Notes under the pieces: generated by a model | The model's input: the letters and a program-made list of their open reading frames with translations, nothing else | Database searches by the model: none | What the model was told of the DNA's origin: nothing | Source: Sedimentisphaerales bacterium | GTDB lineage: Bacteria; Planctomycetota; Phycisphaerae; Sedimentisphaerales; Anaerobacaceae | NCBI GenBank assembly: GCA_030611315.1 | Contig: JAUWPZ010000001.1 | Span: forward strand, 8,640-72,639 | Direction: 5' to 3' | DNA: 64,000 nucleotides | Made by a program: the position numbers and the translations under genes | In this document: piece after piece, positions 853 through 63,037 of the stretch | Position numbering within the stretch: position 1 is the stretch's first letter | Layout: each line of letters begins with the position of its first letter

Positions 853-1008
853 TCTACCCTTAAGGGTAATAAATTCCCGCGATTGGGATTGTAAATTATT
901 GTTTTAAGGTTACTACCTGCGGCACAAGTACCTAGGGCACAAGTTGCCCGCCCCTATGGGGCAGGCGAACCCGCCGCGGCGGGGGAAATTTCAATCGTGA
1001 GCACTATC
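853..1008 (+). repeat. Intergenic repeat family, copy A (156 nt, expanded)
   Basis: It shares a 5' module (TACCCTTAAGGGTAATAAATTCCCGCGATTGGGATTGTAAATTATTGTTTTAAGG) and a 3' module (GAAATTTCAATCGTGAGCACTAT) with copies at 11922-12039 and 29042-29145. The interior carries extra GC-rich hairpins and two GGCACAAGT motifs. Confidence 0.8.
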
Positions 1009-11907: not shown

Positions 11908-11921
11908 CTCTCTGCGGCATC

Positions 11922-12039
11922 TATACCCTTCAGGGTAGTAAATTCCCGCGAGTAAGATTGTAACTTATTGTTCTAAAGCCACTACCTGTGGCACAAGTGA
12001 CCCGCGAACAAACGGGAAATCTCAACTGAGAGCACTATA
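11922..12039 (+). repeat. Intergenic repeat family, copy B (118 nt)
   Basis: TACCCTTCAGGGTAGTAAATTCCCGCGA...GATTGTAACTTATTGTTCTAAAG...GGCACAAGT...GAAATCTCAACTGAGAGCACTAT, located 15 nt after the hisD stop. Confidence 0.8.
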
Positions 12040-16693: not shown

Positions 16694-16761
16694 CGGCGTA
16701 TCTCATACCTCGTACTTAGAAACTGTAACAAAATGAGTTTTCAGTTTGCCCGATAATTCTG

Positions 16762-16804
16762 GATTCCCGCTACCCGCTTTCGCGGGCACAAGCTTCGCGG
16801 GAAT
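16762..16804. repeat. Nested hairpin repeat (ATTCCCGC ... GCGGGAAT type)
   Basis: GATTCCCGCTACCCGCTTTCGCGGGCACAAGCTTCGCGGGAATG lies between the recA stop and the alaS start. It shares ATTCCCGCG and GGCACAAG words with the three-copy element. Confidence 0.65.
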
Positions 16805-16858
16805 GACAGAGAACACACCTTTTTTCTTTCAGATGCTCTTAGTAATTCGCTTGCCGAT

Positions 16859-27307: not shown

Positions 27308-29032
27308 TCACTTATTCTTCTTTTTGGGTCTTTTTACAGGCCAGGGCTGGACGCCGACTCTTTTGGCCCAGCTTTCCCACAGAGTCTTCAACTGGGCGAC
27401 TTTTTGCGGATGCTTGTCGGCGAGGTTATTCAACTCGGTCCGGTCGGCATCGAGGTCATACAGCTCCCACTGGCCCGGATGCCTTGAAACCAGCTTCCAG
27501 TTGTCTTTTCGCACGGCCCGGTTGCCTTCGTGCTCCCAGTATATCGCTTCGCGCTCAATCGGTTTGTTATCAAAGGCCGGCGCCAGGCTCCTGCCTTCCA
27601 TCGGGTATATCTTGTTGCCCTTGTATTCAGCCGGATAATTCGCACCGGATAAATCCACGCACGTCGCCATGATATCGATAAGGTGTCCGGGCTGCGCGCG
27701 AAGCTCGCCCTGGGCCTTTATGCCCCCCGGCCAGTGAGCTACCAAAGGCGTGGATATACCTCCTTCGTGGACCCAGTGCTTGTACAGCCTGAACGGCGTA
27801 TTGGAGGCGTTCGCCCAGGCTTTGCCGTAGGCGATATACGTATCGGCCGGGCCGGGCATTACTCCATAGCCCGTCCGCACGGGCCGACCGTCGCGCGTCA
27901 CCGCCGGCTGCATCCTCGTCTGCAGCTCGTCCCTGCCCATCGGCTTGAGGACGACAGGCCTGGATGGGTCGGGCTTGACCGCTCCGCGGCTGCCGTATTC
28001 CTCCGCGCAGCCGCCGTTGTCGGCCAAGAAGAAAACCAGCGTGTTATCGAATTTCCCCGTCCGCTTTAACGCCCGGACGATGCGCCCGACGCCCTGGTCC
28101 ATACAATCGACCATCGCCGCATATACTTCCATCCGCCGCTCGAACCATTCCTTGTCCTTGGCCTCTTCCCACGGCGCAACTGCCTCATCGCGAGGCGTAA
28201 TCTTCCACTTACTATCGACAATCCCCATCTCAATCATCCGCTTGTGCCGCTCGGCGCGAAGGGCGTCCCAGCCACCTGCATAACGCCCTTTATACCTGGC
28301 GATATCCTGCGGCTTGGCGTGCATAGGCCAGTGCGGCGAGGTGTAGGCAACATACATAAAGAACGGATTTTCTCCTTTATGCTCGCTGATGAACTTCGAA
28401 GCGTTATCACTGATAGCGTCGGTATAGTAGAAGTCCTTGCTGCCGGGGACTATTTGCGTGTTGTCGCGTGTCAGGGTATTCGGGTCGTAGAAGCTCCCTG
28501 CCCCGTGAATCGTGCCGAAGAAACGGTCGAATCCGCGCTGACGAGGCCAGTTGTGCTTGTCGCCATCGGGCTTGGTGGATTTGGTCACATGCCACTTGCC
28601 GCTCATATACGTCGAATAACCCGCTGTCTTGAGGGCCTCCGCGATAGTAACACAGCGATTACTCAGCTCGCCTCGATAGCCGTCATAGCCGTAGTCGCCC
28701 ATCATGTGTCCGACGCCGGCCTGGTGCTGGTAGAGACCGCTCATCAGCGACGCCCTTGTCGGGCAGCAGCGGGCGGTGTTGTAGAACTGCGTAAAGCGCA
28801 GGCCCCCGGCGGCAAGCTCGTTGAGGTTCGGCGTGTTGATTTCACCGCCGTAACAACCTATATCGGAAAATCCCATATCGTCGGCCATCATTACGATTAT
28901 GTTCGGCCGCTTGCGCTTGGCCGTGGAGGTCTGAGAAGCGCTAATACAACCCGGCATCGCCAAAGTCGCCGCCCCAATGCCCATGGTCTTCAAAAAATCA
29001 CGGCGTGTGTAACTAATTGCATTCATATCCAT
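27308..29032 (-). CDS. Arylsulfatase-family protein (Cys-type, Tat signal), paralog
   Basis: It has RRDFLKTMG and ARCCPTRASLMSG motifs. It lies 6 nt upstream of the second sulfatase. Confidence 0.9.
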   Translation of the reverse strand: MDMNAISYTRRDFLKTMGIGAATLAMPGCISASQTSTAKRKRPNIIVMMADDMGFSDIGCYGGEINTPNLNELAAGGLRFTQFYNTARCCPTRASLMSGLYQHQAGVGHMMGDYGYDGYRGELSNRCVTIAEALKTAGYSTYMSGKWHVTKSTKPDGDKHNWPRQRGFDRFFGTIHGAGSFYDPNTLTRDNTQIVPGSKDFYYTDAISDNASKFISEHKGENPFFMYVAYTSPHWPMHAKPQDIARYKGRYAGGWDALRAERHKRMIEMGIVDSKWKITPRDEAVAPWEEAKDKEWFERRMEVYAAMVDCMDQGVGRIVRALKRTGKFDNTLVFFLADNGGCAEEYGSRGAVKPDPSRPVVLKPMGRDELQTRMQPAVTRDGRPVRTGYGVMPGPADTYIAYGKAWANASNTPFRLYKHWVHEGGISTPLVAHWPGGIKAQGELRAQPGHLIDIMATCVDLSGANYPAEYKGNKIYPMEGRSLAPAFDNKPIEREAIYWEHEGNRAVRKDNWKLVSRHPGQWELYDLDADRTELNNLADKHPQKVAQLKTLWESWAKRVGVQPWPVKRPKKKNK

Positions 29033-29041
29033 TTTCTCCTT

Positions 29042-29145
29042 GTATAGTGCTCACGATTGAAATTTCTCGTTTGTTCGCGGGCAAGTAACCTTAAAACAAT
29101 AATTTACAATCCTAATCGCGGGAATTTATTACCCTTAAGGGTATA
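29042..29145 (-). repeat. Intergenic repeat family, copy C (104 nt, minimal)
   Basis: The reverse complement reads TACCCTTAAGGGTAATAAATTCCCGCGATTAGGATTGTAAATTATTGTTTTAAGGTTACTTGCCCGCGAACAAACGAGAAATTTCAATCGTGAGCACTATACA. Its 3' end abuts the AAGGAGA RBS of the sulfatase gene. Confidence 0.8.
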
Positions 29146-29173
29146 AAATAATCAAACGCCCCAACTAACTTTC

Positions 29174-29524
29174 TCAACCAGCTCCTCTGTGGAGCAGCAA
29201 CTGATGAAATATAGCGGCGATAAGCCAGACTGCGAAACTCGCGCAAAGCACTATCTTAAGCGGCAACTGCCTGCGAAAGCATAAATAGGCCGCGAGAAAA
29301 AACAAAACACTCGGCACAATGCCCCACAAGGCGCCCCTAGTGTAATCGGTCATCAGCTTGACATCGCCCGGATTATCCAGATACAGCCAGATAAGCACGA
29401 GAAGGCCCGTCAACGGCATCACTGCAATCAGGCCGGCTAACGTCGGCATTTTTTGCCTGCCCGCCAACCAACTGCAAAAAGCAATAACGCACAGGCTTAT
29501 CAATAACTTGATAACAAATCGCAT
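29174..29524 (-). CDS. Small 4-TM membrane protein (DUF3147-like?)
   Basis: A hydrophobic ~116-aa product starts at ATG 29524. The family call is tentative. Confidence 0.5.
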   Translation of the reverse strand: MRFVIKLLISLCVIAFCSWLAGRQKMPTLAGLIAVMPLTGLLVLIWLYLDNPGDVKLMTDYTRGALWGIVPSVLFFLAAYLCFRRQLPLKIVLCASFAVWLIAAIFHQLLLHRGAG

Positions 29525-29635
29525 AACAACACTGAAATTTACATCACCACACAGACGGAACAAAGAGAACCAAAAAAATACAGGCACCTCCTGCGCCGTC
29601 CCTTTGTCATCCCAAGCGCAGCCGAGGGTTCTCTT

Positions 29636-30067
29636 TTACTTGATAAACCTGATACTGACGGGATAACGATAAGGCTCTCCCTTATTGGCCTTGACGGTAG
29701 CGAGGACGCAAAAGACTATGTTCCCAATCACAACCGCCATCAGCATGAAAAATCCGATGCACACCATAGTCAAAATCGCAGAGACGAACAACGCAATACA
29801 AACGGTAATCTGGAAATTCAGGGCCTCTTTGCCGTGCTCATCGACAAACGGGTCTTCGTCCTTCTTTATCAACCAGATAATCAAAGGCGCAAGAAAACCG
29901 GTAAAAATCGCCAAAAGATGGCACAGCATCGCCCACATTCGGGCATCCTTGCTGACCTCCCGGCTTTCTTGAGCACTTTCGACCTGTTCGGCATCAGCAG
30001 CCTGTTCCGCCTGGCTGCCGCTGGAACTTTCTTCTGCTTCTTGTGAGGCTTGTTCTTCTTCTACCAT
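29636..30067 (-). CDS. DUF4870-like membrane protein with acidic N-terminal tail
   Basis: The core reads ARMWAMLCHL...LIIWLIKKDEDPFVDEHGKEALNFQI...ANKGEPYRYPVSIRF. A ~40-aa Glu/Gln/Ser/Ala tail precedes it. Confidence 0.7.
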   Translation of the reverse strand: MVEEEQASQEAEESSSGSQAEQAADAEQVESAQESREVSKDARMWAMLCHLLAIFTGFLAPLIIWLIKKDEDPFVDEHGKEALNFQITVCIALFVSAILTMVCIGFFMLMAVVIGNIVFCVLATVKANKGEPYRYPVSIRFIK

Positions 30068-62495: not shown

Positions 62496-63037
62496 CCCCG
62501 AAGCAGGCTTCGGGGCTAAACAGTGTTGCATATCGTTAGATTCGCGGATACCATTGGTCTTATGGGGAAGATGATTGGGTATATGGTGACGTGGACGACA
62601 TACGGGACGTGGTTGCAGGGTGATGAAAGAGGATACGTGCGGGATGGAAAAGTGCTGCCGTCAGATGCAGGACTCGAAGAGGCAAATAGAAAACTGCAAA
62701 AGTTCAGGCCTGTTCGTCTAACACCTAAGCAGAAAAGGGTCGTCGAAGAGGCTGTGCTCAAAGAGGCAGAACGAATCGGGCAGGAGATACTTGCGCTTGC
62801 GGTTTGCTCGAATCATGTTCATCTTGTGGCCGGCAAAGGGAAAGAGTCAATAGAGAATGCCGTGTCCCGGTATAAAAATGTGTCGTCCGGTGCCCTGAAA
62901 AAAACGGGATTGACAAAAAGGATATGGACGCGCGGTTTTGACAAGAGGTTCTGTTTCAGTGGTGAACAACTCGAGCAGAAAATCGAATATGTTCGTCGTC
63001 ACGACAAAATCGGTTAGCCCGCAGGCCAGCCTGCGGG
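62496..63037 (+). mobile_element. Hairpin-flanked IS200-like (HUH Y1) cassette
   Basis: The left hairpin is CCCCGAAGC-AG-GCTTCGGGG (62496-62515). The right hairpin is CCCGCAGGC-CA-GCCTGCGGG (63018-63037), immediately after the stop. Both have the same 9-2-9 architecture. Confidence 0.6.
62562..63017 (+). CDS. IS200-like / RAYT-like HUH tyrosine (Y1) transposase family protein
   Basis: It has GYMVTWTTYGTWLQGDERGYV and the HUH motif NHVHLV. The product is ~151 aa from ATG 62562. Confidence 0.65.
   Translation: MGKMIGYMVTWTTYGTWLQGDERGYVRDGKVLPSDAGLEEANRKLQKFRPVRLTPKQKRVVEEAVLKEAERIGQEILALAVCSNHVHLVAGKGKESIENAVSRYKNVSSGALKKTGLTKRIWTRGFDKRFCFSGEQLEQKIEYVRRHDKIG

Follow-up and report, generated by a model that had tools for sequence, protein, structure and literature searches.

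A short sequence recurs in three intergenic places along a 64-kb stretch of DNA, and the question raised by this locus is whether it works as an RNA, moves as DNA or serves as a protein-binding site. The stretch, called the window throughout, comprises positions 8640-72639 of contig C15 in a 3.70-Mb assembly (221 contigs, 93% complete) of a Phycisphaerae-type MAG from a cold seep. The original prediction had left these options side by side. That of a non-autonomous mobile element is strongly supported: there are about 176 copies, patchily distributed, with a 2-bp target duplication, and nested insertions as well as empty sites were found. With a probability of roughly 87%, we are dealing with a MITE of the Correia/RUP type whose movement depends on a transposase that acts in trans and makes 2-bp staggered cuts in its target.

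The three copies of the window, A, B and C, exist as originally described and align over their full length apart from internal insertions. All of them open with TACCC-TTNA-GGGTA, the hairpin of copy B being changed in the loop only, and the interiors were also read correctly, with two GGCACAAG units and two GC-rich hairpins in copy A, one unit in copy B and a minimal copy C. The coordinates given at that time located the copies and in addition took in the 2-bp target duplications. Copy A proper (855-1006, + strand) is 152 nt long and consists of a 99-nt backbone with two units of module M1, module M2 and module M3. It begins with the left-end palindrome TACCC-TTAA-GGGTA (855-868, +), whose 5-bp stem is invariant across copies while the loop varies, and continues with M1 as two tandem 15-nt units, TACCTGCGGCACAAG and TACCTAGGGCACAAG (914-943, +), M2 as a 15-nt insert CCCCTATGGGGCAGG forming a GC-rich hairpin (951-965, +), M3 as CCGCCGCGGCGGGG instead of AAACGG, adding 8 nt and the palindrome CCCGCCG/CGGCGGG (971-984, +), and a right-end module GAAATTTCAATCGTGAGCACTA that is conserved in all copies (985-1006, +). 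The form GAAATTTCAATCGTGAGCACTAT, quoted earlier as the common 3' module, does not apply to copy B, which differs from it at 4 positions. The duplication around copy A is TC, a non-canonical target, present at 853-854 and again at 1007-1008 (both +). Copy B proper (11924-12037, +) has 114 nt, made up of a second-subfamily backbone and one M1 unit (11983-11997), and lies between TA at 11922-11923 and TA at 12038-12039 (both +). Copy C proper (29045-29143, - strand, the element running from 29143 to 29045) is the basic 99-nt form, a bare backbone, with TA at its 5' end (29144-29145, -) and at its 3' end (29043-29044, -).

Copies A and B occupy convergent spacers, A after a DUF1559 gene and B after hisD. 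Directly behind the DUF1559 gene, positions 808-846 (GGCGGCCTTATGC...GCATAAGGCCGCTTTTTT) contain a GC-rich hairpin with a T-run after it; as judged from its sequence, it looks like the intrinsic terminator of this gene, with copy A inserted just past it. Copy C lies 3 nt upstream of AAGGAG (29036-29041), the ribosome-binding site of a Tat-signal sulfatase gene (27308-29032). The order on the minus strand is the CACTA end, TA, one base, AAGGAG and then the sulfatase ATG, the duplicated TA thus being 1 nt away from the ribosome-binding site.

The description as a three-copy element holds for the window and fails for the whole assembly, in which blastn with the three copies as queries found 183 loci and an nhmmer profile found 176, including 153 of full length. 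This whole-genome count, proposed earlier as a check against local debris, showed that the boundaries of the 176 loci, which are spread over more than 100 contigs, are sharp and identical. Loci within 300 nt of a contig end numbered 26, against 6.3 expected, which indicates that the element breaks the assembly and that the true copy number is probably higher. The runs holding the window are cold-seep and marine-sediment metagenomes, and in the source-like run X1 the summed contig depth was about 3,500 over the element and about 16 on its flanks, a difference of about 200-fold. Dozens of different flank sequences begin exactly at the element ends in metagenome contigs. Two copies, at C29:10522 and C161:16072, have near-identical flanks on both sides and belong to a larger region that is duplicated or was assembled twice.

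Essentially all copies are intergenic. Overlaps with crude ORFs (15 cases) touch only the ends of ORFs of 92-160 aa or the edge of a contig, so that the element is non-coding by this measure. Spacers of each type were hit about as often as expected from their total length (tandem, 73 observed and 69 expected; convergent, 22 and 19; divergent, 22 and 29). In tandem spacers, 48 copies were co-oriented with the genes and 25 were opposed (p = 0.0095, with crude gene calls).

The build of the element is modular. Its basic form has 99 nt, opens with TA-CCC, closes with CAC-TA and extends from the left end TACCCTTNAGGGTA to the right end GAGCACTA, with TA outside. Single copies range from 99 to 171 nt, longer loci being nested or adjacent copies, and their lengths are quantised (99, 107, 114, 122, 129, 137, 144, 152, 159 and 167 nt). 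These classes are accounted for by three optional internal modules on the 99-nt backbone. M1 is the 15-nt unit TACCTGTGGCACAAG, present genome-wide as 0-3 tandem units between GGTTAC and TTGCCCGCG. M2 is a 15-nt insert with the hairpin GCCCGCCCC-TAT-GGGGCAGGC, found in the length classes of 129 nt and above and absent from the others. M3, in which CCGCCGCGGCGGGG with its palindrome takes the place of AAACGG, gives the +8 classes of 107, 122, 137, 152 and 167 nt. At least three backbone subfamilies coexist, together with mosaics, and the same modules were found on different subfamilies; differences in modules would most likely have arisen through slippage, template switching and recombination between copies.

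Terminal inverted repeats had been reported absent. However, the two halves of the element form a degenerate inverted repeat, the consensus being self-complementary in register at 26 of 49 positions, while shuffled sequences gave 12.8 +/- 3.1 matches and none of 20,000 reached 26. Among the terminal 25 nt, 16 are complementary, and the repeat contains a perfect AAATTCCCG/CGGGAATTT block. The repeat is imperfect and weaker than in classical MITEs, and the extreme tips (TACCCTT and TAGTGCT) have only TA in common, a point that counts against the MITE assignment. MITEs by definition have no transposase of their own. Both earlier grounds for doubting mobility, the lack of inverted repeats and the lack of a transposase, therefore fall away.

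A second dispersed repeat was noticed at 16760-16810 of the window and at about 30 other places in the genome (among them C34:1324, C47:14090, C62 and C152). It is a hairpin of the form GGATTCC(C/T)GC-[TACCCGC]n-TTTC-[GCGGGCACAAG(C/T)TT]n-CGCGGGAATGACA in which the number of internal units varies, and it has the word GGCACAAG in common with module M1. By our own estimate this word is expected about 113 times in the genome; it occurs 315 times. Free-standing arrays of TACCTA(N)GGCACAAG-like 15-nt units were seen on C15 (outside the window), C37, C55, C183 and C186, and since these lie outside any copy of the element, the M1 unit is not confined to it. Truncated copies on C108 and C208 break in or just after the M1 unit, and the one on C108 runs into the right arm of the second repeat.

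The element is mobile, and its boundaries and the 2-bp duplication can be read from insertion sites of several kinds. Inspection of the flanks, which had been suggested earlier, was informative: in 119 full copies, the dinucleotide just outside TACCC...CACTA was TA on both sides almost without exception, and when the own genome was pooled with other genomes, 169 of 200 copies had TA/TA flanks. Both flanks were other than TA in seven copies, and in four of these they formed identical pairs (GA/GA twice, TC/TC in copy A and TG/TG once). Beyond the dinucleotide, the target flanks showed a symmetric AT-rich preference, roughly WWTT-TA-AAW, which is itself roughly palindromic. Insertions into other copies gave the same boundaries: on contig C44, the TTGTAAATT of a host element has become TTG-TA-[TACCC...CACTA]-TA-AATT, and L081 contains a similar nested case.

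Empty sites were found by comparing the window with Logan contigs of other metagenomes. For copy C, a 785-nt contig from X9, a subsurface metagenome from another study, matches 28752-29042 and 29144-29638 and lacks exactly the 101 nt between them; the joint (29042 to 29144) leaves skipped ends TA..TA with 2 letters that fit either side, and the same joint was present in X5. For copy A, a 1215-nt X9 contig covers 688-854 and 1011-1600, skips 156 nt and keeps one TC. For copy B, an X5 contig passes directly from 11921 to 12038, leaving out 116 nt, and 3 letters are common to both sides; this case is weaker, having only 45 nt on the short side. The lengths skipped at copies C and B, 101 and 116 nt, equal the element plus 2 bp. 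In their flanks, the empty-site contigs depart from the window sequence at roughly 6-10% of positions, and thus a related population lacks all three insertions.

Among relatives, the element has multiplied in lineage-specific bursts. It was present in 9 of 41 genomes, the own genome and 8 of 40 relatives, all of other genera. About 115 candidate loci (about 76% identity) were found in one genus and about 21 in another family of the order, the rest of the positive genomes having 1-10, so that the distribution is patchy and burst-like, the counts in this comparison running from about 181 candidate loci in the own genome down to between 0 and 21 in all relatives but the one with about 115. A scan for exact patterns, with one genome per species, gave among the matches listed MAGs titled Phycisphaerae, Sedimentisphaerales, Anaerohalosphaeraceae, Planctomycetota and 'Pirellulales'. 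Among the same listed matches, 60 of 81 complete copies were exactly 99 nt long, and the ends were conserved with positions 29-59 free to vary. Other lineages carried different hairpin inserts in the variable centre (121-nt and 139-nt forms). Also among the matches listed were copies in MAGs of Cloacimonadota (L053) and Aegiribacteria (L070, L086), which could be either mis-binned Phycisphaerae contigs or the result of transfer between phyla. Short derivatives were seen in other MAGs, namely a 57-nt form in which the left end is joined directly to the right end, and a 68-nt form with a different GC-rich hairpin core (L108; L047, L057). In the literature, we found no description of this element family and no paper linking MITEs with Phycisphaerae or with elements of such kind in Planctomycetes, and a large MITE census (PMC11602168) does not mention Planctomycetes.

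The observations fit a simple scheme. A DDE-type transposase acting in trans would bind the conserved ends (positions 1-28 and 60-99), cut its target with a 2-bp stagger and integrate the element, and repair of the stagger would leave the 2-bp target duplication. The target would be AT-rich, roughly palindromic WWTT-TA-AAW in intergenic DNA, the duplicated 2 bp being almost always TA. To our knowledge, IS630/Tc1-mariner and the IS427 group of IS5 are the only prokaryotic families with 2-bp TA duplications, and for this reason an enzyme of one of these types is the best guess, none that matches having been found here. The element is short, has many dispersed copies with a target-site duplication and filled/empty polymorphism, and ends in imperfect terminal inverted repeats. 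It shares the hallmarks described for bacterial MITEs, TA at the termini, a target-site duplication and a length below 200 bp (PMC2229807). The strict TA target and the 2-bp duplication are those of IS630/Tc1-mariner-type elements such as RUP; ends like those of a resident IS630 element were not found.

Against the MITE reading stands the result that an autonomous element with the same ends did not appear in the own assembly, at the IS630-like loci of relatives, behind left ends in the listed MAGs or on viral contigs. Left and right ends lying 0.5-5 kb apart in the own assembly proved to be neighbouring MITEs only, with no gene enclosed. Among the matches listed, none of 94 left ends in other MAGs led into a gene, and the apparent orphan left ends turned out to be deletion derivatives (of 57 and 68 nt), copies that had diverged, or ends cut off at a contig edge. 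BLAST matches to the left end only in G034 and G036 comprised four regions, two of which were diverged MITE copies and two of which did not match the end patterns. The viral contigs searched held neither copies of the element nor an autonomous element with these ends.

Candidate enzymes also failed to track the element. Of the 9 genomes with the element, 4 had genes for IS630-type DDE_3 proteins, as did 16 of the 32 without it, showing no association; the IS630-like loci of relatives lacked element-like ends, and near DDE_3 genes only chance matches of at most 13 nt were seen. The assembly contained no IS427-type transposase. The DDE_3 remnants on C36 and C117 were considered as a source and rejected, as they are degenerate and their surroundings share nothing with the element ends. 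The remnant on C117 (C117:3564-4708, corresponding to L127:1014-2158) is an IS630-like transposase whose HTH and DDE parts lie in separate ORFs, its 3' end being truncated by an apparent IS3-family OrfA, and the contig ends there. A missing autonomous partner is weak evidence against the MITE reading, since MAGs assemble insertion sequences poorly. The 48:25 co-orientation bias is not predicted by purely neutral insertion, and, the gene calls being crude, it is as it stands the one observation that such insertion does not explain. Given this bias, the element might have some RNA-level effect as a secondary matter.

The co-orientation bias could be explained if the element were more than a passenger and its modules were functional cargo, a protein-binding or RNA-processing site spread next to genes, with a mobilising enzyme of a type not yet linked to TA-duplicating MITEs. 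The main candidate for such cargo is TACCTGTGGCACAAG, the 15-nt unit, which another genus carries at the identical internal position, as seen in a Phycisphaerae SG8_4 MAG (L056, L103, L114), and whose word GGCACAAG is found in the second hairpin repeat family and in the free-standing arrays as well. If true, this proposal would account for the 2:1 bias; we consider it unlikely.

A smaller chance still, and a poor one, is given to a main role as RNA, either as a small RNA with structure or as a cis-acting element of UTRs (terminator, stabiliser or leader), the element having spread because it was useful and the hairpin and modules representing RNA structure. This was one of the options offered at the outset, and several observations speak for it besides the orientation bias. 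All three copies of the window come after a co-oriented gene, the 5' hairpin is invariant, and the long-range AAATTCCCG/CGGGAATTT pairing is possible in 86% of cells. However, the arrangement seen in the window does not extend to the genome, where all four orientations relative to the neighbours occur. The Rfam scan proposed earlier matched no family, with no match at the gathering score over the whole window and none at E <= 1 over copy A. RNAalifold, applied to 91 and to 58 distinct 99-nt copies, kept only the invariant 5-bp terminal hairpin, with a covariation term of 0; part of the invariance of columns 1-27 in the cross-genome alignment stems from the retrieval of the loci, for which the search pattern spanned these columns. 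A defined 19-pair structure (terminal hairpin, AAATTCCCG stem and GTAAG/CTTAC stem) had 86.5% of its cells paired, a value reached with shuffled partners in 54 of 500 cases and thus not better than shuffling gives, and its covariation score was reached by 61 of 500 shuffles and was not significant. Folding energy was about 1 standard deviation below that of shuffles on both strands (z about -1), and mutual information between columns tracked the subfamilies with no helix signal. The duplications and empty sites, moreover, show that the element spread through transposition and not through the descent of a gene.

In favour of an RNA, two metatranscriptome runs contained a few contigs with pieces of the element, but these are of low depth, run into other flanks and represent read-through at most. 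Expression signals within the element were also considered. An intrinsic terminator in M2/M3 was rejected because no T-run follows on either strand, and a sigma-54 promoter in M1 (TGGCAC...TTGC) because the GG-to-GC spacing is 2 nt too short. For an outward sigma-70 promoter formed by the element end and TA, a TATAAA-like -10 can form, but reading of the sequence revealed no -35 at 16-18 nt.

Other modes of movement were weighed against the same insertion data. HUH/Y1 elements insert 3' of a 4-5-nt target and do not duplicate it. A REP/REPIN-like or IS200/IS605-derived palindromic element (PATE), moved as single-stranded DNA by a Y1 HUH transposase (RAYT/TnpA) that recognises a terminal hairpin, would fit the presence of a perfect hairpin at one terminus only, followed in most subfamilies by GTAG. 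The genome also encodes 3-5 Y1_Tnp proteins (IS200/RAYT-type, HUH). One of them is in the window, a 164-aa ORF at 62523-63017 (+) with a weak Y1_Tnp match of 30 bits, and neither repeat family occurs within 1.5 kb of it. Against this origin, which appears slightly less probable than the RNA, 2 bp are duplicated here, including TC/TC, GA/GA and TG/TG, with a single copy in the empty sites; the target preference is symmetric around TA; the dominant subfamily in the genome is without GTAG; and no copy of the element was found within 1.5 kb of any of five Y1_Tnp loci.

Instead of a repair duplication, the TA flanks could also represent the core at which a site-specific recombinase (a serine, tyrosine or guide-RNA IS110-type enzyme) carries out crossover. 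Recombination at a core dinucleotide too leaves the same dinucleotide on both sides, and no DDE partner was found. Yet beyond TA only a weak AT-rich consensus was seen, unlike the 10-14-nt targets of IS110-type enzymes or att sites, the identical non-TA flanks fit duplication of any 2 bp that are cut and not a required core match, and about 176 dispersed sites argue against site specificity. This is the least probable of the enzymatic alternatives. An attC/integron-like site was rejected as well, the copies being dispersed, not arrayed, and having a target duplication. Local duplication debris or chance resemblance, for which nothing speaks beyond the first impression of three copies, is excluded by the number, spread and sharp boundaries of the loci and by their presence in many other genomes.

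Taken as a MITE, the element resembles several known repeat families in build. Correia elements can sit in 5' leaders and between operon genes, and an IHF site, promoters and RNase III processing are known for them; we know of no cognate transposase identified for these elements. Correia/NEMIS elements of Neisseria are alike in being non-coding sequences of about 100-155 bp with hundreds of intergenic copies, in having a terminal TA and a TA target duplication, and in falling into size classes according to an internal segment, 107 and 155 bp in Correia (PMC2229807). The likeness is one of kind only, as sequence and host phylum differ on inspection. In Correia elements the terminal inverted repeats are clean and span about 24-26 bp, whereas here the tips are degenerate and a perfect 9-bp block is subterminal; a single 50-bp segment there compares with three separate optional modules here. 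RUP of Streptococcus pneumoniae, mobilised by IS630-Spn1, is similar in size (about 107 bp) and copy number (about 100), inserts at TA, and has highly similar copies, suggesting recent activity (PMC2229807). The ends of RUP, however, match a resident IS630-family element, whereas for the IS630-like genes of this genome and its relatives the ends are unrelated to those of the element and no co-occurrence with it was seen.

The modular build has a parallel in BOX of the pneumococcus, which is composed of modules as BOX A-Bn-C, with constant end modules and internal units that vary in number; BOX is not known to us to have a target-site duplication or terminal inverted repeats. Enterobacterial ERIC carries inserts at fixed internal sites and has orientation-dependent effects on mRNA (PMC2229807). 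The sequences of both BOX and ERIC are unrelated to that of the element. The REP/REPIN-RAYT system is comparable in its short palindromic intergenic repeats of high copy number and in the presence of Y1 transposase genes in the genome, but REPINs are without target duplication and cluster around a RAYT gene, neither of which holds here.

The element thus adds a new family to a kind of mobile DNA that is already well known. It is neither a new sort of RNA nor a new regulatory system, and it opens no new class of system. Which transposase moves it is a concrete puzzle. Most of the copies are likely to be neutral passengers, and some lie at positions where expression could change, such as copy C in front of the sulfatase ribosome-binding site or copies between operon genes. 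The copies of the window are also markers of very recent insertion, all three being absent from a population whose flanks are roughly 90-94% identical. For annotation, the element makes up about 0.5% of the genome, with similar shares in related Phycisphaerae MAGs. Since it breaks assemblies and seeds spurious short ORFs, a model of the family would make for better gene calls and binning in a sediment lineage about which little is known.
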